In this document: positions 1-43,829 of the stretch, piece after piece
Layout of the letters: each line of letters starts with the position of its first letter
How positions within the stretch are numbered: the stretch's first letter is position 1
From: Obrimoposthia wandeli
Lineage: Eukaryota
Direction of reading: 5' to 3'
Length of the DNA: 64,000 nt
NCBI GenBank assembly: GCA_977020255.1
Contig: CDROCS010000877.1
Span: 1 to 64,000, forward strand
Position numbers and translations under genes: made by a program
Notes under the pieces: generated by a model
What the model saw: the letters and a program-made list of their open reading frames with translations, nothing else
Databases searched by the model: none
What the model was told of the DNA's origin: nothing

Positions 1-169
1 TCACACTAAGCATAAAATTGTCTTTTAGAATTTCAGTGTTAATAATTTCAGTTAAACATCATACATAAAAAGGAATATCAATTACAGTTCACAAGATTAT
101 ACACTATAATTACAAATTATAAAGGAATTATCGGTGGTATGCGATACACAGGGTAGTTCATGATGCCGT

Positions 170-860
170 TCAAGTCAGAAAGTTTCCTTCGATTATTGCT
201 GGGAGTTGGGCTGGCCTGTGCTTCTGCTCCTCCACGCAGAACGAGCACCAGCAATCGCAATAGTTTTCCAGCAGTGTACTATGGGTGCCCACTCTCTGCT
301 TGAGGTTGTCCTGGTTGTTAATGTAGTGTACGGAGAAGGTCGCTCTGCACATCGGGCAGGTTAAAGTCGAGGGGATTGTTGCTGTTGGTAATAATCCACG
401 TCTCGAGGCATTCGACGTGGAAGAGGTGGTCGCAGTTGTTGGGCTTGGGTAGAAGTCCACGATGCCCTGCAGCAGATGGAACATTCTCCAGACATTACTG
501 TGAGAGGATTGATGCTGAATTTGGGCTCGATTGAGTGACTGGTGGTTGTGTGATGTTTACACAAAAGTGGTCGGATTTGTCGTTCTGACAAACAGTAGTA
601 ACACCAACACTCTCCGAAATTCTTCCAACAGAATACCACCTGTACATATACATCCTCTTGGTTGGGTTCTAACATGATGAATCTTGCGAATTGTCTTCTG
701 CATACAGGGCAACAAGGGTATGTTGGATGTCCGAACTGTCCATAAGTTCTGATCCATGTCGATAAACATTCCTCAAATGGTTGCAGGTTTCGGGTCTTGT
801 TCTTCGTTCAAGCGGTTAGATCTTCCAAACATATTGGGCATTCTTCGGACATTCTAAATA
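170..860 (-). pseudogene. Two tandem RING-finger (E3 ligase-like) modules at the polyprotein C-terminus, frameshifted
   Basis: Rejoined frames give CPICLEDL..(TCNH)..ECLSTWI..CCPVCR (840-700) and CSIC..NCDHLFHVECLETWI..TCPMCR (483-347). Each is followed by a CxCxxC motif (ECWCYYC; DCWCSFC). Confidence 0.75.
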
Positions 861-1783
861 CATGATGATGATTACTTCACATGAGTTTTATATATTTCCC
901 TACTATTTGTACAATCGCTTCTAGATATTTCTACATATTTCACACTAATTTATCTACAACCTCCTCTTTCTGACTTATCATATTTCTTGATTGGAGGCGG
1001 AGGTAAGTGGTCGCAATTCACTTCCTCCATGGTGGTGTGTTACAGCATTGCAATCCTTCGCATTTTCGTCGTATTCTTGGGCATACTTGACTGCCTTTCA
1101 CGCACACGATTGTCAATAGAACCACTGTTGTGTCGACACTACGGCCATTCCAATTAGTGCATTGACCGCTATTATTCCGTTGTCCGATGGATTTCATAAT
1201 CATACTTCATTTTGTTGTTTGTCGGTTCGAATGACATTTCCATGGGTTTTGATCGGTTTCCATGTATTATGTCCGATTTTCTAAAAAATTCGTGGATTTG
1301 GGTGTTTTGTTTCCGATGGAACAGGTACTATTATTTTGATTGGAAATGATGTTTGGGATCTAGTGATCGTTCCTCCACTTTTGTCCTCTTAATAATTGTA
1401 CTTTGGTTTCTACCAATTGAGCTCTTTTTTTCTTTCGCTTCTGTCTTTGTTCTGATCACTGTCGGTTTTTTGGAATGGGGTTTACTTTCTCGTTTACCTT
1501 TGTCTTCTTTTTCACTAGGATTGGTTTTTTGGGAATGATTTTCCTGGGTTTGATACTTCTCTCTATACCGGATTTACGAAATCGATTTGTTCTGGTATCT
1601 TAGAGTTATGTAGAATATTTCGCCCACCTGTTATTATCATGATTATGGTCGAGGTCTCTGTAGTATTACTGGAAATTCGATTACACAGACATTCTGTAAA
1701 AATGTGGTACTAACATTTGGCTTTGGATTTCGAATCTGATTCCGCCATCTGGGTTGGGACATTACTGTTACTCTTGTCGGTTT

Positions 1784-2359
1784 CTAGCAATCTGAAAATA
1801 TCCTAACGGAATTCCATACGGATTTACGTCGTCTACCTGTGATCATAATCCTGTCGACAATTTTCCAGATGCGTTCATCTCTAGGCAATATTAATGACTT
1901 TGTTCGGATACTTTGGATAATCCGCTTCCTCTTTGATATTGTTATCCGTAGGTATAACACTCTTTCATGATAGAATAAAATTAGATTGTAATCGGGTGTA
2001 CTTTGGTCGATCTTTATTCTGACCTGTCGGATGACATACAATTTCTGATCAATATTGTCGGTTGCTGACGTCTGTAGATGAATGTCTACTACGTGATTTG
2101 TTTTTAGTAGGGGGATTTCTATGTATACTGCCCGTATTACGTCTTGTCTCCATTTACTGATCATGATCTCATAACTAGCCTTGGTAGTGGTGATTTGTAT
2201 GATCAGCATGATTCCTATGATCGTTCGATTCCTAAACTCAGGAACTTCAATGAAACAAGTCAAATTACTCATATAGTACGGTCTTTCCTCGATATGTTCA
2301 TATATCGTTGGCTGGTACTCTGGTGCTGGTTCATCTAGAAATGGTGGTCTTGGGCACAT
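1784..2359 (-). CDS. Polyprotein segment of unknown function (beta-rich, basic)
   Basis: 191-aa ORF; joined to the upstream TM segment by restoring one A in an A5 run near 2375. Confidence 0.5.
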   Translation of the reverse strand: MCPRPPFLDEPAPEYQPTIYEHIEERPYYMSNLTCFIEVPEFRNRTIIGIMLIIQITTTKASYEIMISKWRQDVIRAVYIEIPLLKTNHVVDIHLQTSATDNIDQKLYVIRQVRIKIDQSTPDYNLILFYHERVLYLRITISKRKRIIQSIRTKSLILPRDERIWKIVDRIMITGRRRKSVWNSVRIFSDC

Positions 2360-2716
2360 ATACTTGTGTTGAATTTTTGTAAATTCACTTGACCTGTTCG
2401 GCTTGCGAGATCATGACGTTTCTTTTTTGATTTCAACTCTATCTTTGTACAACAAAACAAGATGAGTAATATTAATATTATAAATCCAATGATCAGTGCC
2501 AGTATTGGATTAACCACCCTCTAGAATACCATAACGTATTGCTGGTATCCCTTTACTCTTGATGGTTAATATTTTAAATTTGTGTGCACTTTGGTTGGAC
2601 ATGTCACTGAGAAGTACTATTTTAGTTTGTCCAAATGTGTAGCCTTCGCATGTGACAACATCAATTCCATAATGTCCATTTAGTGTTTCCATTTCGGTCG
2701 CTGGGACTATACACAT
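2335..2716 (-). pseudogene. Small type-I membrane module: lumenal Cys-containing part, TM helix, CC and basic stop-transfer
   Basis: ORF 2510-2716 is in frame with 2729-3529 across one TGA; removing one G near 2517 joins VNPILALIIGFIILILLILFCC-TKIELKSKKKR. Confidence 0.55.
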
Positions 2717-2728
2717 TAATCCTGGACA

Positions 2729-3529
2729 TCAATTTACACACATGATCATCACGGCTTTACTGTGGGATGTCTTGATTATTTCTAGGGTGTTATCTAGATT
2801 TCTCAAATGTAAATTATATTCGGATAGTGTCATCAATTCGGCTTTACTGGTTGGCATGGCTTGCAGTACCAATCCAATTACTACTCCATAAATCAATCCT
2901 TGTGCAACGGTGCACAGGGCCTTGACTGACCTTTTGCAAAGGGTTTTAATTATCAATCGTTTGAGATATATCTGTTTCTGATTAGATCGTTTTGTTATCT
3001 GTCGTTGTTTTGACATCTCCTCGATTCCATTTTTTCCGATAATCAACTGTACCTGTTTACCTTGTATCATCAACTTTCCGAATCCATTTTTGGCGGACAA
3101 GCATGTTTTATGTCCTTCCATCGTTTCAATTATCACTCTCTTACTTCCATACTCACGTGTTTTGATGACATCGCCGTCGAATATATACGTTGGTCCTTTC
3201 GTATCAGCATCTTTTTGTATTTCCTTTACAATTCGTTTTCTTCGCTTGCATCCGGCGAATGTTGTTGATATTCGGTCAAGTGTGCGCTGTCGGTCAGCTT
3301 CGTAATCTATTCGGAATTGATTCAGTATTCTGTTTTGTGGGTAAAATATCGCTTCATTTACTATGTTGTCTTCGATCCTTTCGTCTAGATACACAAGCAC
3401 TTTGTTCATCGGTCCATTTGGTCTTTTCATCTTTACAAACTGAAATCTTTTACTGTCGGTTCTCATAGATCGAAGACATTTTCGGATGATCCATACATCA
3501 ATTAATCCTAACAACACTAATAGCATCAT
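2729..3529 (-). CDS. Polyprotein segment: TM helix, basic cytosolic domain, internal signal peptide-like stretch
   Basis: 266-aa ORF in frame with 3545-6562 across a single TAG; hydrophobic MMLLVLLGLIDVWII and GLIYGVVIGLVLQAMPTSKA. Confidence 0.55.
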   Translation of the reverse strand: MMLLVLLGLIDVWIIRKCLRSMRTDSKRFQFVKMKRPNGPMNKVLVYLDERIEDNIVNEAIFYPQNRILNQFRIDYEADRQRTLDRISTTFAGCKRRKRIVKEIQKDADTKGPTYIFDGDVIKTREYGSKRVIIETMEGHKTCLSAKNGFGKLMIQGKQVQLIIGKNGIEEMSKQRQITKRSNQKQIYLKRLIIKTLCKRSVKALCTVAQGLIYGVVIGLVLQAMPTSKAELMTLSEYNLHLRNLDNTLEIIKTSHSKAVMIMCVN

Positions 3530-3544
3530 CAGTGCCGGCGTATG

Positions 3545-6500
3545 CTACTGTATGGTGTAGCTACGAAATTCGTTGAACCAGGAACTATTTCCGTGGTTGG
3601 AGCCTATCTCTTGTGCTCCCGTTATCGGCATTAAACAACTTAACAAGCCTATCGCTAGCAATCTTTGGTATTGAAAGCTGGGCACTGTTGTTGTAGCTTC
3701 ATTTGTTTCTCGTTGTTGCTTCCTCTTCTCGGTGTATTTTTCTATTTCTCGGACGAGTAACGGTTTGAATTCCGTATCTGGTCTATTCTGTTTGATGTAG
3801 ACCATCGCTTCTTCTGGCGTGTGACCATGGTACTCTACCAACAAGGATACACCTATGGTAGGCGCTAACATTGTACCTTTTTTCTGATATATCAGAACGC
3901 CGTTTCCTTCTGTGACTTCGGCTTGGATGGTTTGAGTCAATTTCGTCAGATGTTGTTGTGCATCGTTTATTTCTCGATTGGAAGCATGTATGTATCGAGT
4001 GGTGTCGTCTTCAGTATTTTGACACAGACTAATTATCTCGTTTCCGACTTCAACAATGTTGATTACTCGGTTGATACTGTGGAACTTTAATCCAGCAGTG
4101 TCTATATCTCCTGGATGACATAAAAATACTTTTGGCATTATCTGTGTAATTTTGTCGACTCCGGCTAAGAATAACCCGGTCAATGATAATGCTTGGAGGA
4201 AATTCTTTTCCTTTGGATCCTCAGGAATGTCGTCCATCCGTCTTTGTTCTTGCAACATAAGTTGGTAATTTGCCAACTGTCCCAAAAAATTAAGATTTGG
4301 GTTTGCAATACTTCTTCTCTCCTGTAGGTATTTTAGCGCTTCTAGTACCTGCATTCGTCTAGTCTTTATTAGATATGCTAATACTAGGGTTGCTGATCGA
4401 GAGATTCCTTTCTGGCAATGTACCAACTCTTTTCCTTGGTTTCGAAGTTCTCTGTGAAGTATTTCGTTTGTTTCTACGAACCATTCGAGAAGATTAGCGT
4501 CCATTGAGTCTTTTACTCGTAATGTAATAGCTCTGATTGTCTGATATTGTGATTTGTGATTCATTGTAACGTTGATCACATATGTTATCCCTTGTTCCAA
4601 CAGTTTCTTTTCATCTGTTGCATCTTCCACATTTCCGAGGTATAACTTATCTGGAATGATCTCGCTCATTGGTGGCATTAATTCTGACTCTTCAAGTTTT
4701 AGTCTTTCTAATCTCTTCTCTATTTGTTCGTCGATGTTGGATAGTTTCGCCAGTTTCTTCCCTCTCAGCATTCGTATTGCTGGAGAGATATTCATCTTTA
4801 TCTCTGATGTCTGTTCCTTTGTTGAGTCTTCTTCCGACTCGGTCTCTTCTGCAGATTTAATTCGTCTTTCTTGTATATTCTGTTTCACGAATTCTATGTT
4901 TTGTCTTTTTCTGCTCTCTTTAGCGAATTCAACCTCCATGGTTCTTCCGAATCGCTCTATTATGTCATCTTCGGATTCTGTTGATTCTGTATCGTTACTT
5001 TCCGGTTCGCTGTCTTCACTAGACTCGCTTGAAGGGTATTCTGGTATGTCTGTCTGGACTGAAATTAATGAAGGGGTAAGAATAATTGGATTGATTTCCC
5101 CTTCGTATTTGTGAATCGGATACGGTATTACACTATCTTTAAGTATCTCAACTTGGAACTGTGCTCCATAGCACATGACAATTGTTTCTAATTTACCCAT
5201 GATGGACAATCCATCGAAATAGGTAACATTCAGCTTAGATATCGGTGTTTTCGCATAATTAATTAAATTTACTCGTATCTCGGTTGATGACGGCCATCGA
5301 TTTTTTAGTAAAATTATAATTTCGTCGTTTATCGATGTGATCACACTTGGCGCGGATGATACTATTTCAGCATGATATTTTGGCTGGATTGAGTTGGTCA
5401 CTTGTTCTCGGATCATATTGATTCTTTGTGGTTTTTTATTTTTAGCTTCCCACTTCCGGTATCCGCTGTCAATGCGTAATTCTGCCGTTGCTTTGATAAT
5501 TTTATTGTTGGTCACTTCCGGTTGGTTTAGCGAATGAAATCCTTCTATTACGCTCAACCTTACAGATACTTCCGTTTGATCTGTGTCTAACCGGTGAGAT
5601 TCTGGTATACAACATACAATTGTCTTTCCATCAAAGTATTTGGTGTCCATCTGACAAATTATCTTTTCAGTGTCAGCGTCGATTAAATGGACTCTCATGA
5701 TAACTCTTTTCCCATGTGAATTACGTAATACCATTATTACATCGTGGTATTCTTGTTTGAGTCTTTTTGGTGTACCATGCAGTATGTGACCACCGGCCGG
5801 TTCCTTCTCTTCCTGACTGGCTAGTCCTGCTTCAGTACTGTCATAGTTCTGCCATGCAACTATGTTTGGTGTCAATGTGATTTCGATTATCACTTTCTCA
5901 GTCGTAAACACATTGGAGTTTTGATATAGTGCTGCGACTAATGTATTTCCGTCGTAGTATGACACTCTAAGTTCGCACAGAAATTCGTTTGTCAGTGCAT
6001 CTTTCACAATGACTTCTTTAGCCACATCTGTGGGTTGTGTTTTTTCGAAAACGACTATTATCTCTTCGTCTTCTTCTAATATCTCTTGTGGTGCGATGTG
6101 TCGGATTACTTCCTTTTCCTCTTGGTACTTCATTCTGAGCATATCAATTCTCGCTGGTTTTTCCTCGCTACCACTCGTCATCATGTTTATGTAGTTCCGA
6201 TCACTTACCATTCGTGTAAGTTTAATGGTATTGGTATTTGGCTTCAATTTCTGTGATCTTAACTCATATCGTGATGCATTATCTTTATTTGGTACTAATT
6301 TACATCGATTTGCATGTACAATCATCGGTTCCTTGTTCCGATTCTCCTCGTTGATTACTTTCAAATTTGTTGAGGTTGTCTGGATCACCTTGTATGGTCC
6401 TTTGTATGGTCTATGAAGTTTAAACGATAGACCTGGTTCGATGACTGGATAAAATATCATCACTTGATCTCCGACTCTAAATTCATGTGGTTTTGCTTTT

Positions 6501-6562
6501 TGTCGTATTGTTCCTTGTAACCTTCTTGATTGAATTTCAACTTCAATCCGGCTTTGGTCCAA
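3545..6562 (-). CDS. Integrase C-terminus (GPY/F) fused to three Ig/IPT-like repeats, an active DUSP and a pseudo-DUSP
   Basis: KLHRPYKGPYKVI; three repeats sharing Y[YF]DGx[TS]; IPDKLYLG..VINVT..VHCQKGISRSATLVLAYL..NPNLNFLGQL; second DSP-like fold lacking CX5R. Confidence 0.88.
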   Translation of the reverse strand: MDQSRIEVEIQSRRLQGTIRQKAKPHEFRVGDQVMIFYPVIEPGLSFKLHRPYKGPYKVIQTTSTNLKVINEENRNKEPMIVHANRCKLVPNKDNASRYELRSQKLKPNTNTIKLTRMVSDRNYINMMTSGSEEKPARIDMLRMKYQEEKEVIRHIAPQEILEEDEEIIVVFEKTQPTDVAKEVIVKDALTNEFLCELRVSYYDGNTLVAALYQNSNVFTTEKVIIEITLTPNIVAWQNYDSTEAGLASQEEKEPAGGHILHGTPKRLKQEYHDVIMVLRNSHGKRVIMRVHLIDADTEKIICQMDTKYFDGKTIVCCIPESHRLDTDQTEVSVRLSVIEGFHSLNQPEVTNNKIIKATAELRIDSGYRKWEAKNKKPQRINMIREQVTNSIQPKYHAEIVSSAPSVITSINDEIIILLKNRWPSSTEIRVNLINYAKTPISKLNVTYFDGLSIMGKLETIVMCYGAQFQVEILKDSVIPYPIHKYEGEINPIILTPSLISVQTDIPEYPSSESSEDSEPESNDTESTESEDDIIERFGRTMEVEFAKESRKRQNIEFVKQNIQERRIKSAEETESEEDSTKEQTSEIKMNISPAIRMLRGKKLAKLSNIDEQIEKRLERLKLEESELMPPMSEIIPDKLYLGNVEDATDEKKLLEQGITYVINVTMNHKSQYQTIRAITLRVKDSMDANLLEWFVETNEILHRELRNQGKELVHCQKGISRSATLVLAYLIKTRRMQVLEALKYLQERRSIANPNLNFLGQLANYQLMLQEQRRMDDIPEDPKEKNFLQALSLTGLFLAGVDKITQIMPKVFLCHPGDIDTAGLKFHSINRVINIVEVGNEIISLCQNTEDDTTRYIHASNREINDAQQHLTKLTQTIQAEVTEGNGVLIYQKKGTMLAPTIGVSLLVEYHGHTPEEAMVYIKQNRPDTEFKPLLVREIEKYTEKRKQQRETNEATTTVPSFQYQRLLAIGLLSCLMPITGAQEIGSNHGNSSWFNEFRSYTIQ
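4262..4669 (-). other. Dual-specificity phosphatase domain with intact HCX5R
   Basis: VHCQKGISRS active-site loop; upstream Asp loop (VKDSMDANL); AYL motif; R..ANPNLNFLGQL motif typical of MKP/VH1-type DUSPs. Confidence 0.92.
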
Positions 6563-7330
6563 GCATCTTGTAATCTTTCCTTCATGACGACAATGTATTG
6601 TTCAGTTTCTAGATACTGAGATGCTGGCTCGGTCCACTCCAGATCCATTGGCATATTGTTCTGTCTGAGATACATCAGATAGAATGGTGTGTGACCCGTC
6701 GCCTCTCGAACTGAATTCCTGTAAGCATATAAACATGAAGGTAAATATTTATCCCAATCCTCTTGCTTGTCTGAGCAATAGGATTGTACCATCATACATA
6801 AAGTTTTATTAAACCTTTCTACCAGACCATCTGTCTGTGGGTGATATGGTGAAGTTTGTAACTTCATAATTCCGAATATCTTCGATACTGCTTTTATGAC
6901 TTCTCCAGTGAAGTTCTTTCCTTGATCCGTTAACAACTTTCTAGGCACTCCGTATCGAAATATTATCTCTTCCACTAAGATTTGCGCTATTGTTTCAGCT
7001 TTCTGGTTCTGCATGGGATATGCTTCTACCCATCTCGTCATGTAATCCGTAAATACTATGACGTACTTGTTTCCTTTACTTGATTCTCTCAATGGTCCCA
7101 ATATATCCATCGCTGTGAATTCCATTGGTGCCAAAGGAACTGGCATTGGTTTTAGTGGAACTTTAGTACGAGTTCCGGTGTCTTTTCTGGTTAAACATAC
7201 TTTACATTGTTTACACCATTGTTTTATGTCGTCTTCCATACCATCCCAATGGTACTGGCTATTGTCTTTCGCCCTGACAGATGTCCTCCTAGTGTTCCAT
7301 CGTGATACTGGATCATCACTGCTGTTTTCA
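6460..7330 (-). CDS. pol: Retroviral-type integrase (HHCC + DDE core)
   Basis: HDGTLGGH..WCKQCKVC; MDILGP..TDYMTRW..TDQGKNF..YHPQTDGLVERFNKTL. Confidence 0.95.
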
Positions 7331-8500
7331 ATGACTTCGGAATTACTACTACTATTTTTCCGACATTATTGACAATATACAAGATTCCTTCTTTTATCGA
7401 GTATTTTTTCGTCATTTCATCGTTTAGATCTCCTTTCACCAACAATTCTTTGATTAGACTCAGTTCTTCATCTTCTTTCTGTTCTTTGATGATCTCTTTG
7501 TCTATTTTACCCGTTTTTAGCAAAATCGTCAGTAGATTTGCTTCTCCATTTTGGTCATTGGTTTCATCTTGTTCTTCCTCTGGAATTATGTTTCCTTTCT
7601 CATCTACATTTGTCAATCTCGATAAACAATCTGCGTTGCCATTCGACTTTCCGGTTCTATAACGGATTTCTAGATCGAATTCGGCCAATTTTAGAAACCA
7701 TCTGTTCAACCTACTCATCTCATCTCTATGTTTATATAAGAACTGTAATGGTTTGTGATCTGTATACAGGAATACCTTTTGTCCTAGCAAATAGTGTCTG
7801 TACTGTCTACATGAATACACTATGGCTAGACATTCCTTTTCGATAACAGAGTATCCTCTTTCGGCTCTGTTTAATCCTCTACTCGCATACGCGATGACGT
7901 GTTCTCTTCCTTCGTCATCCTCTTGTCCCAATACTGCTCCTACAGCATAGTTACTTGCATCTGTCATGAGTATGAATTGTCGGTTTATATCTGGAAACGC
8001 TAATATTGGTGCTTTTATCAGTCTTTCTTTTAAATGCTCGAACGCTTGTTGTGCTTCTTCTCCCCATATGAACTTCTTATCTTTTCTCGTCAACTTCCTC
8101 AATGGTGTTGCTATATCTGAAAAATGTTCAACAAATCGTCTATAATAATTCGCAAGGCCTAAAAAACTCTGTATCTCCTTAACAGTCTTTGGCGCTAAAT
8201 GTGCTTTTACTTTCTCGATCTTTGCCGGATCAGGTCGAATGCCTTCTTTCGATACTATATGTCCTAAAAATGTTACTCGCTCTTTAGCCCATTCGCATTT
8301 TGTAGGTTTAACTTTAATTTAGCGTTTTCCAGTCTTTTAAATACAACTTCAAGATTTTTTAAATGTTCTTCGAACGTTTTTGAAAATATTATTATGTCAT
8401 CGATATAAACCATCGTGTTTGCACACGATGCGAGTACAAAATTCATGCAACGCTGAAATGTTGCTGGAGCTCCTGTCAGTCGAATGGCATCTTTTCGCAT
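7224..8500 (-). pseudogene. pol: RT C-terminal half and RNase H, two single-base frameshifts
   Basis: GAPATFQR..VYIDDIIIFS; FLGHIVS..FLGLANYYRRFV; TDASNYAVGAVL..EKECLAIV..YTDHKPL..NADCLSR. Confidence 0.95.
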
Positions 8501-11500
8501 TCGTATAGTCCATCTCCGCAGGAAAAGGCTGTTTTGTGTTTATCCTCTTCCTCTATCTCGATTTGCCAGTATCCACTCTGCAAATCTAATGTTGTAAAAT
8601 AATCTGAATTACCCAATTTATCGAGCATCTCTTCGATTCTAGGTAATGGATACACATCTTTTCTTGTGATCTTGTTCAGTTCTCTGAAATCTATACAGAA
8701 TCTCATTTTCCCATCCTTCTTTTTTACCAACACCACAGGTGCTGAGAATGGCGAAAAACTCGGTCTAATTACTCCTGTTTTAGACATATCTTCTATCTGA
8801 CTTTTTACTTCATCTTGTAACTGTAATGGTACTCGATATGGTCTTCTTCTGACTACTTTGTCTTCTGTCAGTGGTATTGTATGTTTTATGACAGGTGTTT
8901 CTCCTATGTCATATGGATTTTTTGCAATTACTTTCGGAAATTTATGTATTAGATCAAGTAATTGTTTCTTTTCTCTAGTTGTCAGTCTTTCTGATTGGAT
9001 TACTATTTCTTCATAATCATTCGTATCTTTATCGAGTTTCATAGCACACACGGTGGGATTCTCCATCTGTGCTATCTTTCCCAACCTCATTCCTCTGTAT
9101 AATAGAATGTCATTGTTGGTTGTATTCATCAGTCTAACTGGTATTTTGTGGTTTTCGATCAGGCATACTGTACTCACAACTGGTAATTCGTATTTCTCTA
9201 TGAAATCTCGTGATGGTTCGAACACAACTGGTCCTTTATCTTCTGATAATGTGTGACCTTGAATGAGAAATTGTGATCTTTTACCGATTTTTATAGGATT
9301 TTCTATAATTACATCAATTTGGTTTATTTGTCTGTTTGATGTGCTATCCTTCAATCTTGGATCTTGTAAATCAATACTTATCCCTTTGAGTTGTGATAAT
9401 ACATCCATTCCTAAAATTGTAGGTTCAGGACATTCTTTCATGATTCTAACTGGTATAGTGATCGTATTACGTCCAATTATAAATGTACATGGTAATATTC
9501 CCGTCACTTTAACAGGGTCTCCATTGACCGATACCAAGAATTCATCTGGTTCTGCCATTGTTCGTTTCTGTTCCTCTGTCAAACAGTCTTCACTTACTAT
9601 CGAAGCTACAGCACCTGTATCAATTAAGGCTTTTACTCTTAAATTATTTACTCTAATGATAGCTGCTGGTCGCTGTGCTCCATTTATATTTCCCATATGG
9701 TATATTGTATTTATCGAATTATTACACTCTGTCAGTCCACTTCCTTTGTTTGGATAGTGAAATCTAATGTTTCTCACTTGTCGATCTATTATTCTTCGAC
9801 AAATCGGACATGATACCATTTCATTCGCACATCTTATTTTGTTGACCATGCAAACTGCGCATTCCGGATCTTCTAGTACGTATTCTAGTTCATTTATGTA
9901 CTCTTTCTCTTTTGTTTCAATTGTACTGTCATCTTTATCTCGCAGTAATTCAAAAATCGATCCGTATCCGTTTTGCGTAGTTTTTATTTTTAATTCTACC
10001 AAATCTCTGATTCTTTCTGCTTCTTTCGGATATAGTCTTCTCACGAATGACACTACCGGTGTGTCTTGTTGAGCCAAAATCTCTTTCCGTGTGATTTGGT
10101 ATTCGATTATACATTCGGTTTTCTGTTCTTTTTGCTTTATTTTGTTTTTAAAAGTACAAAATTCGCAAAATTCATGATGTAAAATTTTCTTAGGTAGCTC
10201 AAGAGTATATCTGTCGATAATTCGTTCTTTTTTACACTTGTGGCATTTAATTACGTCTTTACCATCCTTTTTTATAGCAAAAAGTCCCTTTTTTGCCAAT
10301 TTTTTAAGTCTTGGATCTTCGAAAGTTATTTCTCGATACTGTTCATCACATTCGTTCACTTCTCGCATAACTTCGAATATATCTTCAATTCGACTATTTG
10401 TTATTACTCTTCCTGTTATTAGAGCTGATTCTCCTTTTGGAATCTTGTCACTGTAATCGAAATCGGGTGCTTTTCCCGTTTGGATTTCTGGTACGTTTGA
10501 AGTTTTCAGTTTCAAAAGAAATGGACAATTTGGTGCATCTCTTTTATGACGTCTCATTGGGTTTTCATTCTTTTCCCATTCTCTAAACTTTACTCTACAC
10601 CATACGCATCGTACGACTTCCTCATGACCATAACTGCTTGTCACGTTTAACATTTCTAAACCTGATCTTGCCATTTTACGTGCCATTCCTTTTGAATAGT
10701 ACTGTTCTAATATATTTCGTCTCTTTCTCTCGAATCTCATGGGATCCCTTTCTGACAGATTCACATATGTTATTTTTCTCCTCGTCATCTCTTGTGGTCC
10801 GAGGTTTACGTTTTTGTAGTGAAGTATCGACTTTACTAGCGCTTCCTGTTTTTTGTCTGGGTACGAACTTCCCATACGGAACGTAGTGTATTTTTCCTTT
10901 TCGACTATGGGTCCTCTCAACATTTTTATCTCTCTCACTGAACTGTCATTCTTATAACTCTTGTTGTTTGGTAGTATAATTATTCCTTCAAACATTCTTA
11001 TTACGTCCATCCCAATCATGACTGGACTACCGCAATCTGTGAATATTCTAGCATTTAACTGTAATGCTCTTCCATCGATATTCAATGAACATTTCAGTGT
11101 TCCTTCCGACACTACATCTGTACCATTCACGTTAACAAATGTCTGTTTTCTAGGACATACTTCTCTTAATTCTTTTGATGACAAGATTTCTTTACTCAGT
11201 ACTGATACTGCAGATCCGGTATCAACTTCGGCAAGATATTCTCTTCCGTTCAATGTTACTGCTACTTGTGGTGGAGCATTTGGATTCTCATTTGATATCC
11301 TAGACTTCAGAATTCTTCTGGAATTATCTTTTTTGTCTTTTTCCTCTGCTTGTGGAATTTCACTGTAGCTCACTTTAGGCCATCTTATCATTAGGATGCC
11401 TCTCTTGAACTTTTCTTTCTCTTCCTTTAAATCCTTCATTGGATATAGGTTTAACGCTACTTCTTCCTTGTCTGGTAATGGAATCTTTGGTTTTCCTGGT

Positions 11501-14007
11501 ATCTTTGCATATACTCCTGGACTATCATTATCGTCGTCGTTGTTGTCTCGATAGTTTCTTGGTTCTCGCATCATGGTTCTCGTTTGGTGTTGTTCCTTCT
11601 TGAGGGCTCGCAACTCGTTCTCGTGATGATGGTGCATTAGATATTTTGCTAAAAATGGAAAACATCCAATTATAAGTTGCCAGGTGATTCCGGTTATCCT
11701 GTATAAACTATACGTAGACAACACCTGGGCTATAATTACCTGCACAAATTTAATTATAACATAAATACCTATGATACCCGAAAATAGTTGTCCTAAAACA
11801 AGGAATTTCCCCCACATCTTTCTAAGTGTCTGATGTGCTGCTTCCTTGAAATGACTTGGCGATAACAACATATCGAAATTCGCATATCTAGCTCCTGGTG
11901 GTAATGCTCGATGTACCATCTTCGTAAGTACTCTGGCTCTTTTTACTGGAAACATTATTTCGTTCCATGCCGCTTTTAAGTCTTTTTCATTGTACAATCC
12001 TGCGTTCTCCATATTTTCCACCGCTTCGAATTTCATTTTACCTTTAAGATTCGTCATTTTTATCATCGCTGGGGTTTTCGTTGGCTTTCGATCAGGTAAC
12101 GTTATCCATAGATCATTCGTCATCTGATATTCAGGTGCCATTATATTAGAGCAGCTGATTTCTTTAGTTGGAGTGTCTTTTGGAAGTATCATTCTCGTGA
12201 TTGGTTCAACAAAAAGATCTTTTAAATTATACGTTACTGCCAATTCACTCGTACATCGATCTGTTTTTCTCAACTGTACCTCTACTTTATTACACTTGTA
12301 AGTATACAATACTTCTCCCATGGTTTTAGCAAATACTCCTTCATCCAAGGGTAATAATGGTGCTACCATGTCTGGATTCGTAATAGCTAATGCTAACTTT
12401 GTTCTTACGATCTCTTTGTTTAGCTGGCAATCTCTTTCGATCATCATCCGATATAACTGTTCCATTTGCATCAATCCTTTATGATAATAGAAATCAATTT
12501 TATTATTAAAATACGTGTGTAGCTGCATATCTCTAGGTTTTAGCTCGGTTTCTGCCAATGCTATTGCTTCTTTGGACAAAACTATTCCTGGATAGTTTGT
12601 AGTACTAACAGTCATTCCGCATCGCGCTTTGTTTCTCTTTTTAATAAATATCAATCCTTCTTCTATTGATGTTGCCATTAACAGTGTAGGTGTCTTTGTC
12701 ATTGGAATTGGTCTTGTTTCATTTAGCAATCCTTTTCCAACTTTATTATACAGGAACCCTTCTCCATCTTTATTATACAGGAATCCTTTTATTTTATTAA
12801 AGCTAATCTCTTTCAAAAATACTAAAGAGCATTGTTTCGGATTCACGTGATACACAATTGTGGATTCGCCTGTAAAACAAGATGTATCTGTCATTTTACA
12901 TTCTGGATACTTCATCATTAGTTGTGTCTTTTTATCAAAATTGGCGGTCCATGTTTTTAATTCGATTTTGTAAGTTACGTCCATTACTAACTCGGTTACT
13001 TTGGTTCCACGCACGTTTTTTGTTCCTCCGTCACAAGATCCATCGGCCCATCGTTGTCCGACTCTCGTGACTGTTTCGTATCGTCTCACTCCAATTTTTA
13101 CATCAGGTTTGTAATTCTTGTCTACCTCTATTGTTCCCGTTCGAAATGCGTCTTCGCAATCTCTCGGCAAAACCTTATGTGCCTTGTACGGTGTGGTAGG
13201 TGTGATTTCCGACATAAAACTTCTATGGCCACAATAGAATTCGTGATAACTTGAATGGATTGAACATTCTTTCACTTCTACTTGTACTTTATCAACATCC
13301 TGATACACAAAGTAGTTTTCAACACCTTTAACTTCTAATTTTGACGGTTGTGATTCTGGACAGTCTTCGCTGTCAAGCAGTGAATACTTTTGTCCCATCT
13401 TTGGTATGCTACAGTCATATGCTATCAATCCTGATGCCTGTTGCATTCCCATGAACATTACTAACATCATCATCATCATTGTTGTGGACATATTTGGTTG
13501 ATTGTTTCTCTCTTTCGGACGGTATTGTTTATTCTCTCTTTGACGATTCTCATGACATTGTTCGTCATCGTCTTCATTCATTTCCACAATGGTTTTAGCG
13601 TAGTCACTTAATTTTGCCCAACCTCCATTTTCGTCAATTCGTCTCTGTAATACATTCTCGATCAAATACATTGCTTCATTTATTCCTTGTTTGACTTCGT
13701 GAGGTTGGCTCGTTCGTTCCGTCAATTGGAAACATAGATATGTGATCGCTGTAATTAACTTTTTATTTGTAGTTTGGTTTCCACATAATCTCGCTAAAAC
13801 TTCACCGTCATAAAATCTATCTATCGATGCATGGTATACATGATTCGCGGTCATTCTCTTTACTGCAGACATCTGTGATCTAACTGCTTTAGTCAAATTG
13901 TCTGTTATATCGGTTGTTTCATCTCTGTACATTTTGAACAACTTCGGCTTCACTTGCCTAAGAATTCCCGTAAGTATATCTTTACTACTTGGAACTTCTG
14001 AATTCAT
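8476..14007 (-). CDS. pol: 1843-aa polyprotein: Bcl-2-like, signal peptide, chuvirus-like glycoprotein, protease 1, BIR-BIR-RING, protease 2, RT N-terminal half
   Basis: ENGGW; LIAYDC..FYCGH..YKCNKVE..WGKFLVLG; VDTGSA; CVWC..WEKNENPMRRHKRDAPNCPF; CPICR; IDTGAV; SPFSAPVVLVKKKDGKMRFCIDFRELN..LDLQSGYWQI. Confidence 0.93.
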   Translation of the reverse strand: MNSEVPSSKDILTGILRQVKPKLFKMYRDETTDITDNLTKAVRSQMSAVKRMTANHVYHASIDRFYDGEVLARLCGNQTTNKKLITAITYLCFQLTERTSQPHEVKQGINEAMYLIENVLQRRIDENGGWAKLSDYAKTIVEMNEDDDEQCHENRQRENKQYRPKERNNQPNMSTTMMMMMLVMFMGMQQASGLIAYDCSIPKMGQKYSLLDSEDCPESQPSKLEVKGVENYFVYQDVDKVQVEVKECSIHSSYHEFYCGHRSFMSEITPTTPYKAHKVLPRDCEDAFRTGTIEVDKNYKPDVKIGVRRYETVTRVGQRWADGSCDGGTKNVRGTKVTELVMDVTYKIELKTWTANFDKKTQLMMKYPECKMTDTSCFTGESTIVYHVNPKQCSLVFLKEISFNKIKGFLYNKDGEGFLYNKVGKGLLNETRPIPMTKTPTLLMATSIEEGLIFIKKRNKARCGMTVSTTNYPGIVLSKEAIALAETELKPRDMQLHTYFNNKIDFYYHKGLMQMEQLYRMMIERDCQLNKEIVRTKLALAITNPDMVAPLLPLDEGVFAKTMGEVLYTYKCNKVEVQLRKTDRCTSELAVTYNLKDLFVEPITRMILPKDTPTKEISCSNIMAPEYQMTNDLWITLPDRKPTKTPAMIKMTNLKGKMKFEAVENMENAGLYNEKDLKAAWNEIMFPVKRARVLTKMVHRALPPGARYANFDMLLSPSHFKEAAHQTLRKMWGKFLVLGQLFSGIIGIYVIIKFVQVIIAQVLSTYSLYRITGITWQLIIGCFPFLAKYLMHHHHENELRALKKEQHQTRTMMREPRNYRDNNDDDNDSPGVYAKIPGKPKIPLPDKEEVALNLYPMKDLKEEKEKFKRGILMIRWPKVSYSEIPQAEEKDKKDNSRRILKSRISNENPNAPPQVAVTLNGREYLAEVDTGSAVSVLSKEILSSKELREVCPRKQTFVNVNGTDVVSEGTLKCSLNIDGRALQLNARIFTDCGSPVMIGMDVIRMFEGIIILPNNKSYKNDSSVREIKMLRGPIVEKEKYTTFRMGSSYPDKKQEALVKSILHYKNVNLGPQEMTRRKITYVNLSERDPMRFERKRRNILEQYYSKGMARKMARSGLEMLNVTSSYGHEEVVRCVWCRVKFREWEKNENPMRRHKRDAPNCPFLLKLKTSNVPEIQTGKAPDFDYSDKIPKGESALITGRVITNSRIEDIFEVMREVNECDEQYREITFEDPRLKKLAKKGLFAIKKDGKDVIKCHKCKKERIIDRYTLELPKKILHHEFCEFCTFKNKIKQKEQKTECIIEYQITRKEILAQQDTPVVSFVRRLYPKEAERIRDLVELKIKTTQNGYGSIFELLRDKDDSTIETKEKEYINELEYVLEDPECAVCMVNKIRCANEMVSCPICRRIIDRQVRNIRFHYPNKGSGLTECNNSINTIYHMGNINGAQRPAAIIRVNNLRVKALIDTGAVASIVSEDCLTEEQKRTMAEPDEFLVSVNGDPVKVTGILPCTFIIGRNTITIPVRIMKECPEPTILGMDVLSQLKGISIDLQDPRLKDSTSNRQINQIDVIIENPIKIGKRSQFLIQGHTLSEDKGPVVFEPSRDFIEKYELPVVSTVCLIENHKIPVRLMNTTNNDILLYRGMRLGKIAQMENPTVCAMKLDKDTNDYEEIVIQSERLTTREKKQLLDLIHKFPKVIAKNPYDIGETPVIKHTIPLTEDKVVRRRPYRVPLQLQDEVKSQIEDMSKTGVIRPSFSPFSAPVVLVKKKDGKMRFCIDFRELNKITRKDVYPLPRIEEMLDKLGNSDYFTTLDLQSGYWQIEIEEEDKHKTAFSCGDGLYECEKMPFD
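9350..9680 (-). other. Retropepsin aspartic protease 2 (canonical position before RT)
   Basis: VKALIDTGAVASIVS..ILGMDVL; DTG at 9613-9621. Confidence 0.92.
9780..10760 (-). other. IAP-like module: BIR, degenerate BIR, internally deleted RING
   Basis: MARSG..VRCVWC..WEKNENPMRRH..PNCPF; LAKKGLFA..IKCHKC..HHEFCEFC; CAVCM..CANEMVSCPICRRII. Confidence 0.85.
10960..11290 (-). other. Retropepsin aspartic protease 1 (extra copy after the glycoprotein)
   Basis: VTLNGREYLAEVDTGSAVSVLS..VMIGMDVI; DTG at 11215-11223. Confidence 0.9.
11630..13491 (-). other. env: Signal peptide plus chuvirus-like (class III, gB-related) envelope glycoprotein with C-terminal TM region
   Basis: MMMMMLVMFMGMQQASG|LIAYDC; ECSI..FYCGHRS; DCQL..LALAITNPD..GEVLYTYKC.KVEV..CTSELAV..FVEPITR; WGKFLVLGQLFSGIIGIYVII. 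This Cys and motif spacing matches chuvirus G as I recall it. Confidence 0.82.
13588..13986 (-). other. Bcl-2-like domain (divergent BH1, clear BH2)
   Basis: EVKQGINEAMYLIENVLQRRIDENGGWAKLSDY aligns by eye with the Bcl-xL BH2 region (..LEPWIQENGGWDTF); helical domain of about 135 aa. Confidence 0.62.
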
Positions 14008-14060
14008 ATCACCTCTGATATCTTCATTCCTCTCTGCACTATACTGCTCTAATGACGCTG

Positions 14061-17000
14061 CTAACTGTCAATGCTTAGATGTCTCTCTTCATCAGTTTGT
14101 GGTGCAGTTAGAACGTTTCGTAATATACTTTCGCCTTTTCTAGGTCTTCCAGGTCCTCTTCGAAAATACTGATACTCAGTTTGATTCTCTCCTGGATCAT
14201 ACGGTTCATCATTAAACTGTATCTCTTGACTTGGTCCTTCTTCATGGCCAATCTCTTCATTTTGTCGCATCATCTGCTCTGCTTGTCTATCTTTGTATGC
14301 AGCATGCCAAATTGGTGAATCCAAATCTACAATCTCGGATACTTCGTCTTCTCCTACTAGTTGGGTTACGGTTTCGTTTTGTCTCACTTGGTTAGCTGTA
14401 TCCGTGACTTCATCTTGTCTGATTTGAATTATATCTGGTTCTGGTGGCACCTCGACCACTGGAGTTGTCAACTCATTTTCTAAATTCATGTCTTGTAATT
14501 CAGCTACATACGGTTCTGGTGTGGATGTCTTGTTCCAAGCTTCAGCTACATCATTATCTCCGCTTTCGCTTGAACTGGCTAAAATTTCTATAGGCGTTTT
14601 TATCATTTCTAACGCAGAATTCAATATCTCCGTTAATCCTTCATTATCTATTAACTCTTGACGTCCTACAGTGATGACATCAATTTTTTCCTCTAATTCA
14701 TTTCCTATCGGATATCCACACTCGACTGGTACGTCTTCATCATCTAGTGATCTCCCTTTATAATGGAACAACATATTCATTCCATCAATTTCGAGTTTCT
14801 CGGCCAACTTTTTCCGAATCGTTTTCATTGTTTGATACACGTTAAGTTTTTCATGTATTATCTGTCCGGAAATTAATCGAAGTGAAATTTTCATCGTTCC
14901 TTTTTGGTTTGATCTCTGTACATAACGACCATAACCTTTCAATAATCCTCGGGGTACTTCTTTGTAACCCAAGTTATCATGACTATGTTTAACCAATTCT
15001 GCACGCACTTCTTCCAATCGGTGCACTTTAATTGTTTGCAATTTGGCCAAAACTTCTGGAGCTTCACTCGTTTCATCTAACGGTTGATTTAACGTCTCCT
15101 TAGCTTCACTAATTATCTTTTTTACATTTTCCATACTCATAGCATTTCTCGCTGCCTCTACATGTTCAGTCATAGGTTGTGCATTACACGTTTTCTCTAT
15201 TGGTGTCTCATATGCTTCTAATATTCTATTCATTAAATCATTCATCTCTTCTCTCGAGTGTAGACTTTTCTCTTGTTTCGACAACGTAGATGAATTCGCC
15301 ATCTTTGTATGTGGTGAATCTTTAATTATTCCCAACATTCGTTCAAATTTACTATCACTATCTTCAAAATCTATTTCGCGTCGAAGCTCGGTTTCGCGAT
15401 TCCTATCACTGTCATCGCTTACATAACTAAAATTTCCCTTTGGTTTCGGCGAACTCTCACGACTATTTGTCTTGTCGACATTATTATTATTATATCTACC
15501 GGAATTATTATATCTCTCAGCTCCTTGCTGTCCTACGTAATTATTGTATCTCTCAGCTCCTTGCTGTCTGTCTGCATAGTTATTGTACCTACCTGGTGAC
15601 TGTTGTCTATCTGTATACTGATTATTCAGTCTCCATGGCTGTGGAGTATATCCACCACCTCTATTCCATGGCGGAGGTGAATTATATCCTCTATAATTAT
15701 TTCCAAAATTATTATTACCGAAATTATTATTTCCAAATCTGTTAGCTCCGAACTCTTTACTTCTCGTACAATCTCTCGAATAGTGACCCATTTGTTTACA
15801 CGTGTAACACATTATTCTCCCTCGAATATCTATCTTATTTTGTTCATCTTCGAACTGTACTCTACGACTATTCTGTCTATTATCATAGCGTCCTCTAAAA
15901 TCATTTCTTCGGAAATTCGATTCAAAACCGCTTCCTCGTATATTGAATCTTCCGTCACTACTTCCTGTATTATTTCCAAATCGAGAGTCACTTCGCTCTC
16001 CTCTGTTTGCGTTATAATTCCTATCGTCTCCTCTCCAAGGTTGGCGATTTCCTGAATTATCTCTATTAAATCTATTCCTGGAATCATCTCTATTTCTATT
16101 CCACGAATCATTACTATTTCTACCTCTTGAATCATCTCGATTCCTGTTCCAAGACTCATTATTATTTCTACCTCTGGAATCATCTCGATTCCTACTTCGG
16201 AAATTATCTCTGTTTCCGTTACTGGATTCATCTACTTTTTCAAACTTATTTTGTCCATAATTTCGATTCTGAAAATTACTCGGTTCTGTTTTGTTCACAA
16301 ATACCTTTGTCTTATCGTCGTCACCTGCAGTCATTGCGTAAATTGCCAATGCTGCGTTATTTTTTATATTTTTCTCAATCTCTCTCGCCTTTCGCACGGC
16401 GTTATCAAAATCATTTGTATCCGATACAGCTAATAACACTTTAATATCCTTTTTCAATCCTCCTCTAAATATATCTAACAAAACCTCTGCCATTTCATTT
16501 TGGTTCCGGTCATTTTCCGCTACTTGTGCTTCTGGAGCTACAGGATTACCGTCCTGATTTCTCATTATTCTTCTTGGGTACGCTCTTGCGGCCAAGGTTC
16601 TCAAAACATACGCGTATTCATTCACGCCTTCATCATGTTTCTGTTTCCGTTCTCTCATGAGTCGCTTATTTACTTTGGCTAAGTCTCCTAATACCAATTT
16701 TCCAATAAAAGCATTTTCCAACGTTGGCCAATCTATGCGTTCTGCTTCTGTCAAATGTTTATACACTTCAAGTGCTAATTCGGTTAAATGTGCCTGTACT
16801 CTGACACATTTTTCTTTATCGTTCCATCCTTAAACATCTGCACAACTCGAATATTCTGCGAGGAAGTCACAAATACTTTCCTCATCTCCTTTAAACTTTG
16901 TAATCTGCAATGATCCTGAAAAATTGGGTCTCAACGTCGCATTTAAAGCTTGTGCCAACTGTTCGGCATTCATGTCACCTACATTATTTCCTGCATTAAT

Positions 17001-17400
17001 ATCTGCTTGAACTCCTGGGTGAGCCATATCTTCAATTATATCGTCTTCAACTATTTCTTCAATATTATTTACTTGAACTTCTTCAATCACTACTGGATTG
17101 GCAATTTCAATTTCTTCTGGGTTTTGAACTTCAAGATTATCAATTTCTTCTGGGTTTATGTCACCAAATAACTCAGTCAGCTCAAAACTGTCGGTTGAAA
17201 CTGCTGATTGATCAACGTCTCTTTCTGATACGTTTTCTTCGACTCTAGTCTTTTCTGTTACTTTGTTATCTGTTTGGGGAACCTGTTCAATTCGGTTAAC
17301 TTTATTATTATTTGTCTCTTCCTTGGGAATCTGACTTTGTCTTCTAGTATTATACGCGGGTCCTTTTCTATTATCCGTTGTCTTATCAATTATGTATTCG
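14061..17400 (-). CDS. gag: Gag with CCHC knuckle, R/N/D-rich tract, ubiquitin-like domain and AT-hook; one premature stop at 16830
   Basis: GWNDKEKC..LTELALEVY; RKQKHDEGVNEY..L; CYTCKQMGHYSRDC (15768-15809); frame open upstream to ~17400; Ubl at ~14680-14895; RRGPGRPRK at ~14140-14163. Confidence 0.88.
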
Positions 17401-17564
17401 TTTACGATATCAATTTACTTATTATTTTTATCTTATTTCACAATTCTTATTTTACGATTTTTTATCTCTTTAATTAGTTCGAGGACAGAGTCTCCCGACT
17501 TAACCTATTCAATTAATTACTTCGAGTATCAATCCACTCGATTCTCACTTTATCAAATTTACTG

Positions 17565-18078
17565 ACTCGAGGAACAAATCCACTCGATTTCTCAAAACTT
17601 ATCGAATTCTTACTTCGAGGAACAAATCTACCCGATTTCTCAAAAACTTATCAAATTCTTAACTTCGAGGAACAAATCTACCCGATTTCTCAAAAACTTA
17701 TCAAATTCTTAACTTCGAGGAACAAATCTACTCGATTTCTCAAAAACTTATCAATTCTTAACTTCGAGGAACAAATCTACCCGATTTCTCAACACTTATC
17801 AAATTCTTAACTTCGAGGAACAAATCTACTCGATTTCTCAACACTTATCAAATTCTTATCTCAATTTACTTATATCTTCTTCTGAAACTTATTCTAAATT
17901 TGCTTATATCTTCTTCTGAAACTTATTCTCAATTATCTGAAACTTATTCTCAATATCTGAAACTTATTCTTAATATCTGCACTTATTCTGTTTACCTGAA
18001 ACTTATTCTCAATTATCTGAAACTTATCTGAACTTATTATATTTACCTGAAACTTATTCTCAATATCTGAACTTATTC
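17565..18078. repeat. 5' leader tandem arrays: ~6 x 49-50 bp, then a ~20-bp unit array
   Basis: CTTCGAGGAACAAATCTA recurs at 17613, 17663, 17713, 17762, 17811; CTGAAACTTATTCT recurs through 17880-18078. Confidence 0.9.
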
Positions 18079-18106
18079 CACGTGAATTCGCTGTGTCCGA
18101 CGAGCT

Positions 18107-18125
18107 ATCCTCACTCGGGGCACCA
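18107..18125 (-). promoter_or_regulatory. Primer-binding site complementary to the 3' end of elongator tRNA-Met
   Basis: Plus strand ATCCTCACTCGGGGCACCA matches metazoan tRNA-Met(e) 3' end (..GATCCTCACNCGGGGCACCA); 8 nt from the LTR end. Confidence 0.85.
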
Positions 18126-18654
18126 CTTTAATATGTTGGGGTTTCTATACGAAACTTGGTACAGATCCTCTGAAATGCGGAGGGCCCCAACGTGAGTTCG
18201 AATAGAAGCAGGTCTTAAAGTTGGTCGTGGCCTACTTAGTGTTATGGTTGCCTATCTCTTGTACTATCTGAAGGTGTTTGATTTGACGTCTCTTAATCTG
18301 AAGGGTGCAAAAACAACTTGTTCTAATGTAGGAAATCGTTTATTGGTAATTCACGAAACTAAACACAACAATACGTTTATGTACGTATTTTCTAAAAAGT
18401 ATAGTAAAAATTCCTAAGACTTCTGTAAGTCTCTACAACAAGTGGGGATGAACCACGTATCGATTTTAAGGTTATGTTTTTTCTTCACCAGAGTCTTTAC
18501 TCTAAAACTACGAGCAGTTTACAGAGCCGTTGCTCTAAAAATATGAGTAATTTAGAGGGCTGATGTTTATAATAGGGAATAGTTTACAGAGCTGTTGCTC
18601 TAAAATAGGGAATGATTTGAATCGTAACTTTCCGGTTGGTTAAATGCCAACACT

Positions 18655-19615
18655 TCACCTTTTGATGATCAAAAACAATTTATCAATTTATGATCGATTT
18701 CTTACTCAATTAATTTCACCTTTAATGATGATCAAAACAATTTATCAAATCAAATTATTCTTCCAGATAATTTACTCGTTTACTTCTAATTCAATAATTT
18801 CACCTTTAACGATGATCAAAGCAATTAATCAAATCAAATTATTATTCCAGATAATTTACTCGTTTTACTGCTAATTCAATAATTTCACCTTTAATGATGA
18901 TCAAAACTTTATCAAATTAAATTATTATTCCAGATAATTTACTCGTTTACTTCTAATTCAATAATTTCACCTTTAATGATGATCAAGACTTTATCAATCA
19001 AATTATTATTCAAGATAAATTACTCGTTTACTTCTAATTCAATAATTTCACCTTTAATGATGATCAAAACAATTTATCAAATCAAATTATTATTCAAGAT
19101 AAATTACTCGTTTACTTCTAATTCAATAATTTCACCTTTAATGATGATCAAGACTTTATCAATCAAATTATTATTCAAGATAAATTACTCGTTTACTTCT
19201 AATTCAATAATTTCACCTTTAATGATGATCAAAACAATTTATCAAATCAAATTATTATTCAAGATAAATTACTCGTTTACTTCTAATTCAATAATTTCAC
19301 CTTTAATGATGATCAAATTATTATTCAAGATAAATTACTCGTTTACTTCTAATTCAATAATTTCACCTTTAATGATGATCAAATTATTATTCAAGATAAA
19401 TTACTCGTTTACTTCTAATTCAATAATTTCACCTTTAATGATGATCAAATTATTATTCAAGATAAATTACTCGTTTACTTCTAATTCAATAATTTCACCT
19501 TTAATGATGATCAAATTATTATTCAAGATAAATTACTCGTTTACTTCTAATTCAATAATTTCACCTTTAATGATGATCAAATTATTATGCCAGATAATTT
19601 ACGCGTTTACCTCTA
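18655..19615. repeat. Tandem array, 66-bp core with 81/84-bp variants
   Basis: AAGATAAATTACTCGTTTACTTCTAATTCAATAATTTCACCTTTAATGATGATCAAA repeats (19261, 19327, ...). Confidence 0.95.
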
Positions 19616-43770: not shown

Positions 43771-43829
43771 GAAGTAAGAAATTTTTTAAATTAATATTTA
43801 TTAATTTTTATTTAGTTCAGTACAAGTAC

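Follow-up and report, generated by a model that had tools for sequence, protein, structure and literature searches.

The first 64,000 nucleotides of contig CDROCS010000877.1 of Obrimoposthia wandeli (assembly GCA_977020255.1), hereafter the window, raise the question of whether the long minus-strand coding run at their start belongs to a single retroelement equipped to manage its host cell. A preliminary description had read positions 170 to 17,400 as one ~17-kb polyprotein of a giant enveloped gypsy element, akin to the planarian Burro elements, with a host-control toolkit like that of large DNA viruses and a domain combination not known to have been described. We consider it likely that the locus holds a copy of a recently active, Burro-like Ty3/gypsy family that encodes Gag, an envelope glycoprotein (Env), Pol and host-directed accessory proteins in an open reading frame (ORF) of ~5,350 aa, plus three RING-H2 ORFs, and that this cargo serves to keep the expressing cell alive.

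The element is a recently active and abundant Ty3/gypsy family with long terminal repeats (LTRs), one copy of which occupies positions 20880 to 1 on the minus strand. Its paired TG...CA LTRs with target duplication, the order protease (PR), reverse transcriptase (RT), RNase H (RH), integrase (IN), and a primer-binding site (PBS) place it in Ty3/gypsy (Metaviridae). Family members measure 23-26 kb, the span of three complete copies; the window is the start of a contig in an AT-rich, 1.35-Gb assembly of 6,912 contigs, and its copy runs off the contig start, with the loss of the 3' LTR and ~0.95 kb of internal sequence. A 24-base pattern for the active site of the dual-specificity phosphatase (DUSP) described below, allowing up to one mismatch, occurs at 1,515 places in the assembly (control 0); some 1,500 near-identical copies, were each of them full-length, would make up at most ~3% of the assembly. 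At least 36 other copies match window positions 9500-13500 at 96-98% identity and at least 24 match positions 1-6500 at 96-97%, and the whole internal region is collinear with the window in the six copies fetched. LTR ends are 97.8-100% identical within the pairs of five two-LTR copies, and among four copies in which target duplications could be assessed, two have an exact 4-bp duplication, one agrees at 3/4 bases and one has none; the similarity of the LTR pairs, together with the exact duplications, shows the insertions to be recent. The PBS 18-mer, which we take to be of the tRNA-Met type, has 5,403 exact matches across the assembly (control 0), and Pol of a distant relative matches 31 other genome places with open frames of 1,202-2,911 aa. 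Since PBS matches outnumber DUSP motifs and these other long-frame places exist, further large-ORF families probably share the same primer. The 5' LTR and PBS upstream of position 17,400, a conserved domain between the second protease and RT, and the copy number had all been overlooked in the preliminary description.

The reading of a single ~17-kb polyprotein run holds for the family and fails for the window copy, where the purine-skewed coding run on the minus strand of 1-17414 is divided into eight frames of at least 150 aa plus fragments. Stop-to-stop frames of 5,461 and 5,478 aa occur in 2/150 scored copies, compared with an expected ORF1 span of 5,476 codons, and 7/9 further copies are open from the ubiquitin-like domain (Ubl) through RT. 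Each of the three in-frame stops of the window copy is a sense codon elsewhere (in 7/7, 6/6 and 6/6 other copies), and most or all other copies lack its indel clusters, 21/27 of which lie within 2.6 kb of the contig end; the breaks are private to this copy, and the idea that they are features of the family was rejected. Private differences number 86 in the first 2 kb and no more than 4 per 2 kb past 4 kb, and in other copies 36/69 private indels adjoin homopolymers, against a background of 13%. Because the private breaks are piled at the contig end and indels are linked to homopolymers, assembly error is probably the source of much of the decay of the window copy.

The accessory domains, including the pseudo-DUSP and the second protease, are under strong purifying selection during element replication, as judged by a codon-by-codon comparison of natural copies (against up to 16 others in the 5' half and 6 in the 3' half) in which variants common to at least two copies were scored. 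These shared variants comprise 45 synonymous (S) and 3 nonsynonymous (N) changes in the core enzymes and 62 S and 13 N in the accessory domains, where, allowing for transition bias, 31% S would be expected (p=1.7e-20); the two shifted-frame controls each gave p=1, and every accessory module was significant alone (p 1e-4 to 2.5e-3; Table 1). Env and the first protease together have 38 S and 12 N. Among the RING-H2 ORFs, two versions of the third differ with dN 0.17 and dS 0.61, and ORF B shows no amino-acid change among five copies, with up to six synonymous changes. The cargo is thus neither missing from other copies nor evolving neutrally.

Table 1. Features of the element in the window, with shared synonymous/nonsynonymous variants (S/N) per module. 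Domain calls are from Pfam on the window's own frames or from regions scanned alone; the Ubl, BIR2, pseudo-DUSP and Bcl-2 matches, scanned alone, all lie below Pfam cut-offs, the first three nonetheless being clear.
Feature	Position	Strand	Basis and details	S/N
5' LTR	18134..20880	-	TG...CA, ~2.75 kb; 53-, 66- and 84-bp tandem arrays; same termini at both LTRs of two-LTR copies
PBS	18108..18125	-	8 nt after LTR; TGG-starting 18-mer
Leader	17028..18107	-	20-, 34- and 49-bp tandem arrays
ORF1 polyprotein	986..17027	-	~5,350 aa from first ATG; window copy carries 27 private indel clusters plus in-frame stops
Gag	15768..17027	-	Capsid region and one CCHC knuckle, 15768-15809 (zf-CCHC E 9e-6)
Ubl	14664..14894	-	Pfam ubiquitin E 9e-4, scanned alone	7/0
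AT-hook-like motif	14136..14162	-	Motif only; identical in 13/16 other copies
Bcl-2-like helical domain (tentative)	13561..14046	-	Top Pfam match Bcl-2, E 0.07, scanned alone	11/2
Env	11671..13491	-	Signal-peptide-like 13429-13491, ectodomain, transmembrane segment (TM) 11719-11775; PF24664 (Monjiviricetes fusion glycoprotein) E 1.6e-95	31/12
Aspartic protease 1 (PR1)	10978..11295	-	Pfam; DTG in 15/15 copies	7/0
IAP cassette	9778..10740	-	BIR1 10498-10740; divergent BIR2 10138-10350; C3HC4 RING 9778-9870	11/5 (BIRs)
Aspartic protease 2 (PR2)	9373..9684	-	Pfam; DTG in 15/15 copies
Conserved PR2-RT domain	9058..9330	-	Position of Burro's dUTPase-like motif; 4/6 clade relatives match, E 4e-13 to 7e-11
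RT, RH, IN	6125..8970	-	Pfam; YIDD at 8396-8407
Three ~90-aa beta-sandwich repeats	5126..6121	-	Mutual alignment; IPT/TIG-like (lead)	11/2
DUSP	4247..4675	-	Pfam DSPc; HCxxGxxR intact at 4397-4420	11/2
Pseudo-DUSP	3716..4159	-	DSPc E 1e-6 alone; catalytic Cys and Arg absent in alignment	7/1
Membrane region	986..3715	-	Signal-like 3614-3667, 2840-2893, 2177-2227, alternating with TM 3485-3541, 2449-2505, ~1099-1150	24/9 (over 2525-3715)
RING-H2 ORF A	556..852	-	~99 aa, frame-broken here; zf-RING_2 E 2e-8 and 5e-9 in two other copies
RING-H2 ORF B	190..495	-	~101 aa, frame-broken here; zf-RING_2 E 8e-9

Relatives of the element were placed with an RT-RH tree (FastTree; 108/120 homologues, the 12 with less than 75% RT-RH coverage being excluded), built without named Burro, Ogre, Tat or Mag rows. 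The element falls in a seven-row clade (SH-like 100) with the metagenome proteins P0013, P0033, P0017, P0006, P0010 and P0018, at 56-61% identity in RT-RH. P0013 and P0033 have the same PF24664 Env in frame ahead of PR and RT, but their stretch from Env to RT contains one protease only and lacks an IAP. Like this element, P0010, P0017, P0018 and P0006 carry post-integrase extensions, three of which end, by eye, in a hydrophobic TM-like stretch. Several relatives thus have signal-like and TM-like stretches past the integrase, which makes membrane cargo at this position look like a trait of the whole clade. The extensions differ among the four, with signal-like and TM-like stretches and proline-rich tails, and a signal-like stretch of P0018 resembles the Env signal of this element. 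No DSPc domain was found in any of the six clade relatives, all of which are partial sequences, whereas it is present here. Three short metagenome loci have 33-46% identity to the element.

Most of the predicted modules were borne out: the Ubl, the in-frame Env, both proteases, RT, RH and IN (all three by Pfam on the window's frames), the three mutually aligning repeats, the intact and degenerate phosphatases and the three signal-like/TM pairs after the pseudo-DUSP. Others stand in part. Gag has its zinc knuckle, but its capsid part has no Pfam or PDB match, and the AT-hook is a motif only. The Bcl-2 call is the top Pfam match of its region and a weak one; a PDB sequence search with this region gave two unrelated matches, the Atlas gave unrelated fungal clusters, and of the 15 places in the genome with a Bcl-2 profile match at E<=0.1, none lies inside the window. 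Env is 33-34% identical to the in-frame Env of P0033 and P0013 and keeps the cysteines common to the Env of these relatives (10/10 and 8/8); compared with the PDB by sequence, it had no match. As for the putative class III assignment, one preprint predicts this class for a chuvirus glycoprotein (bioRxiv 10.64898/2026.08.30.748148).

The two proteases are 30% identical to each other, and those of the relatives are 30-37% identical to PR2 and 20-29% to PR1. PR1 follows Env, as the protease does in P0013 and P0033, and PR2 precedes the conserved pre-RT domain, for which no Pfam, PHROG or PDB match was found. Given that PR1 holds the position seen in relatives while PR2 is closer to their proteases in sequence, the IAP was probably gained together with a protease duplication. 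Within the IAP cassette, BIR1 was found by Pfam on the window frames and BIR2, scanned alone, at E 0.0075; the BIR ligands are kept in 15/15 copies. The RING is intact in 9/9 other copies examined (Pfam E 3e-12), but in the window copy it has an in-frame gap near 9834. The best PDB match to the IAP cassette of another copy is cIAP1 (E 8e-15).

Downstream of the integrase, the three repeats offer a weak lead to an IPT/TIG-like fold from two sources: TIG clusters in the Atlas (0.89-0.90, low recognition) and a best fold match to plexin A2 (Z 5.6, rmsd 3.1, 77 aligned, model pLDDT 57). Pfam finds two DSPc stretches on the window frames (E 5e-38). The best PDB match to the DUSP is DUSP10/MKP5 (E 5e-24), and alignment to DUSP10 places both the HCx5R loop and the general-acid Asp; the loop is identical in 5/6 other copies. 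No viral phosphatase was present among the best 60 of 72 PDB matches. A word-index search, which is weak evidence, found no fused DUSP-retroelement relatives and returned cellular phosphatases only (1 and 4). One copy has a ~335-bp insertion within its DUSP region (L018:1795-2131). The membrane segments were located by hydropathy on the open frame of another copy and mapped onto the window. ORF1 ends near 986, and three short RING-H2 ORFs lie downstream, each with its own ATG, the third of them, with the 3' LTR, beyond the contig start. We therefore reject the 3' RINGs as parts of the polyprotein, into which the preliminary description had placed two of them; they are separate ORFs, three in all.

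How might such a chain be used? The product of ORF1 would thread into the endoplasmic reticulum (ER) at the Env signal, return to the cytosol past the Env TM and re-enter the ER at three further signal/TM pairs, leaving Gag-Ubl-Bcl-2-like and PR1-IAP-PR2-Pol-repeats-DUSPs in the cytosol and placing Env in the membrane along with three small type I proteins. Release of the parts would fall to signal peptidase and the proteases of the element. Lying between two proteases, the IAP could be released as a BIR-BIR-RING unit that inhibits caspases and acts as an E3 ligase, while the Bcl-2-like domain, possibly tethered via the Env signal, would act upstream at membranes. The MKP-like DUSP may dephosphorylate stress MAP kinases (p38/JNK), and the pseudo-DUSP may bind phospho-substrates or regulate the neighbouring DUSP. 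The RING ORFs would supply E3 ligases from separate messages or by reinitiation. Acting together, IAP, Bcl-2-like domain and phosphatase would keep an element-expressing cell alive under caspase and stress-kinase signalling; we infer the activities of the DUSP, IAP, Bcl-2-like and RING parts from their sequences. A bolder version, which we find doubtful, would have a still-replicating metavirus that is infectious from cell to cell. Its polyprotein would hold the first retroelement-encoded MAP-kinase-type phosphatase, paired with a pseudophosphatase that regulates it, together with three surface proteins and an IAP freed by a second protease dedicated to that cut; its clade would extend well beyond planarian Burro and swap modules like large DNA viruses.

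Several observations weigh against the proposal of a Burro-like family with survival cargo. The Bcl-2 assignment falls below the Pfam cut-off, its region returned no homologue from 1.84 billion representative proteins, and a single-sequence fold of it, a poor model with pLDDT 40, gave no Bcl-2 fold match. The Pfam scan of the window frames detected no MAPK-docking rhodanese domain, and the substrate of the DUSP may therefore not be a MAP kinase. The shared variants are non-independent events, so that the p-values overstate certainty, although their direction is unambiguous, and the sample of copies behind the selection test is small. Finally, the element is Burro-like by its domain order, on which kinship rests, Burro sequences not being in the tree.

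A complete Env under selection suggests transfer from cell to cell. A serious contender, if somewhat short of an even chance, is that the family is purely intracellular, with Env kept for membrane assembly or some other local role and no extracellular infectious stage. The Env ectodomain lacks a furin-type R-X-K/R-R site, and a low-sensitivity search found no divergent relative in viral contigs. The single ORF would yield Gag, Env and Pol at 1:1:1, unlike retroviruses. This reading must be set against an Env that retains its full ectodomain, signal and TM, shares cysteines with distant relatives and shows a marked excess of synonymous variants.

We also entertain, more tentatively, a host-element mutualism, in which the host tolerates the survival cargo or makes use of it, as in stem-cell protection, instead of facing it as viral counter-defence; this is compatible with the survival-cargo proposal and changes the beneficiary. 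The host tolerates ~1,500 copies, and the accessible text of PMC13465017, citing Lee et al. 2026, reports that BIR and RING of Burro1 shield stem cells from caspase-mediated apoptosis. Yet the selection was seen on variants common to dispersed, recently inserted copies and so reflects replication of the element, and no domesticated single-copy locus was seen.

It is rather unlikely that the family or its exact architecture, phosphatase included, has already been catalogued, whether in Repbase or Dfam, as Burro-2 to -4, or in the Lee 2026 survey. The N-terminal domain order does match that of Burro point for point (PMC6431247), and Burro expansions are reported in land and freshwater planarians in the accessible part of PMC13465017. 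However, no phosphatase in a Burro-type element was found in the literature searched, and the word is absent from the review PMC6431247; Grohme 2018, Lee 2026, Repbase and Dfam lay outside that search, which makes the absence provisional. Identity with Burro1/GYPSM1 was rejected, as the element has no MATH or ankyrin Pfam match and one knuckle rather than three, and the BURRO1 primers mismatch it at 5-7/20 bases. Last, the window copy is fragmented and adjoins a 41-kb inverted duplication at the end of its contig, which could hint that the domains were strung together by chance, through nested insertions or a chimeric assembly, or are neutral passengers; the six collinear copies, the full-span single frames and the purifying selection with its shifted-frame controls refute this.

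Variation within the family and the surroundings of the window copy yielded further observations. The 8-nt spacing between LTR and PBS, found in 7/7 copies examined, is a long gap. No long purine run marks a polypurine tract in the 50 nt before the 3' LTR in five copies; a T-run flanked by a G-run and a C-run lies there (L013:5860-5916, L014, L017, L026, L029). Rfam and tRNA searches gave no matches. The 66-bp LTR array is highly variable (L029:2731-9551; window 18699-19618), and the 3' LTR measures 6.8 kb in one copy and 1.7 kb in another. The third RING ORF exists in two types and there are at least two LTR types (3' regions of L017, L022, L025 and L026); the window's LTR is shared by two copies over its last ~335 nt only, and in one copy the second RING type is combined with LTR ends like those of the window, which suggests recombination between subfamilies. 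Positions 23084-64000 form the 41-kb inverted duplication, which runs to the window end; its arms are 99% identical on the outside, declining to 95% near the centre (40466-44448), and it may be a true palindrome or an artefact of a read folding back. One of its arms contains an integrase fragment of another LTR element (34966-35544, minus strand). Elsewhere, weak heme-oxygenase matches (E 1e-4 and 0.006) at C2070:66100-66381 and C5499:88036-88317 lie in frames of 746 and 798 aa that lack introns; they may be due to chance or reflect cargo of some other element. Of other marker genes searched for in the assembly, HORMA is present and MAD1 was not found, but such losses differ from one planarian to another (PMC13238120), and the markers were set aside as a guide to the host group.

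Among known systems, Burro comes in thousands of copies with a single ORF of 4,873-5,140 aa that contains Gag, a Ubi2/SUMO-like domain, BCL-2, an in-frame Env akin to mononegavirus fusion proteins, PR, a dUTPase-like motif, BIR and a RING-type motif, a cargo wider than the BIR/RING attributed to Burro in the preliminary description, and the copies were proposed to be integrated proviruses that meddle with apoptosis and ubiquitination (PMC6431247). Burro expression in planarians is described in the accessible parts of PMC8532177 and PMC6884822. Burro/GYPSM1 and this element have in common long LTRs with tandem repeats, an ORF of ~5,000 aa spanning Gag, Env and Pol, copies in the thousands, BIR and RING cargo, and the order Gag-knuckle, Ubl, mononegavirus-like Env in frame, PR, RT, RH and IN, with a tentative BCL2-like domain here between Ubl and Env and a conserved domain of its own at the place of Burro's dUTPase-like motif. 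What is already published for Burro therefore includes the single Gag-Ubl-BCL2-Env-PR-Pol ORF with its BIR as well as the ideas of a provirus and of interference with apoptosis and ubiquitin; the virus-like host-control reading, plausible for a cargo that is real and selected, is not new (PMC6431247). This element differs in its length (23-26 kb vs >30 kb), its one knuckle (2-3 in Burro/GYPSM1), its lack of a MATH or ankyrin match, the two proteases flanking BIR-BIR-RING, the three RING-H2 ORFs, and a post-integrase half with IPT-like repeats, DUSP, pseudo-DUSP and three signal/TM modules. As far as the literature searched goes, and provisionally, the claim of an undescribed combination stands for the MKP-like DUSP with its pseudo-DUSP, the twin proteases around the IAP, the three IPT-like repeats, the post-integrase membrane modules and the three RING-H2 ORFs.

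The Burro1 B-IAP is likewise a BIR and RING cassette within a giant gypsy element, and according to the accessible part of PMC13465017 its function was tested there; here the cassette, whose function is predicted from sequence, is accompanied by a second BIR-like unit and phosphatases. Anakin resembles this element as an LTR element with a Monjiviricetes-type (chuvirus) glycoprotein (PMC7642597, PMC10084718, accessible parts), but belongs to the BEL/Pao superfamily, and the accessible part of PMC10084718 mentions no such accessory cargo.

The family makes direct tests possible of the phosphatase substrate, of IAP release by the twin proteases and of whether the cargo benefits element or host. 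Baculoviruses and poxviruses carry IAP, v-Bcl-2, v-ubiquitin and VH1/PTP phosphatases as separate genes of large DNA viruses. The same functional classes are found here, with a DUSP that best matches cellular DUSP10/MKP5. Among retroelements, the Burro type is the best case of pox- or baculovirus-style host-control genes, with one cargo gene reported to support stem cells of the host; to its cargo this family would add a new class, phospho-signalling.

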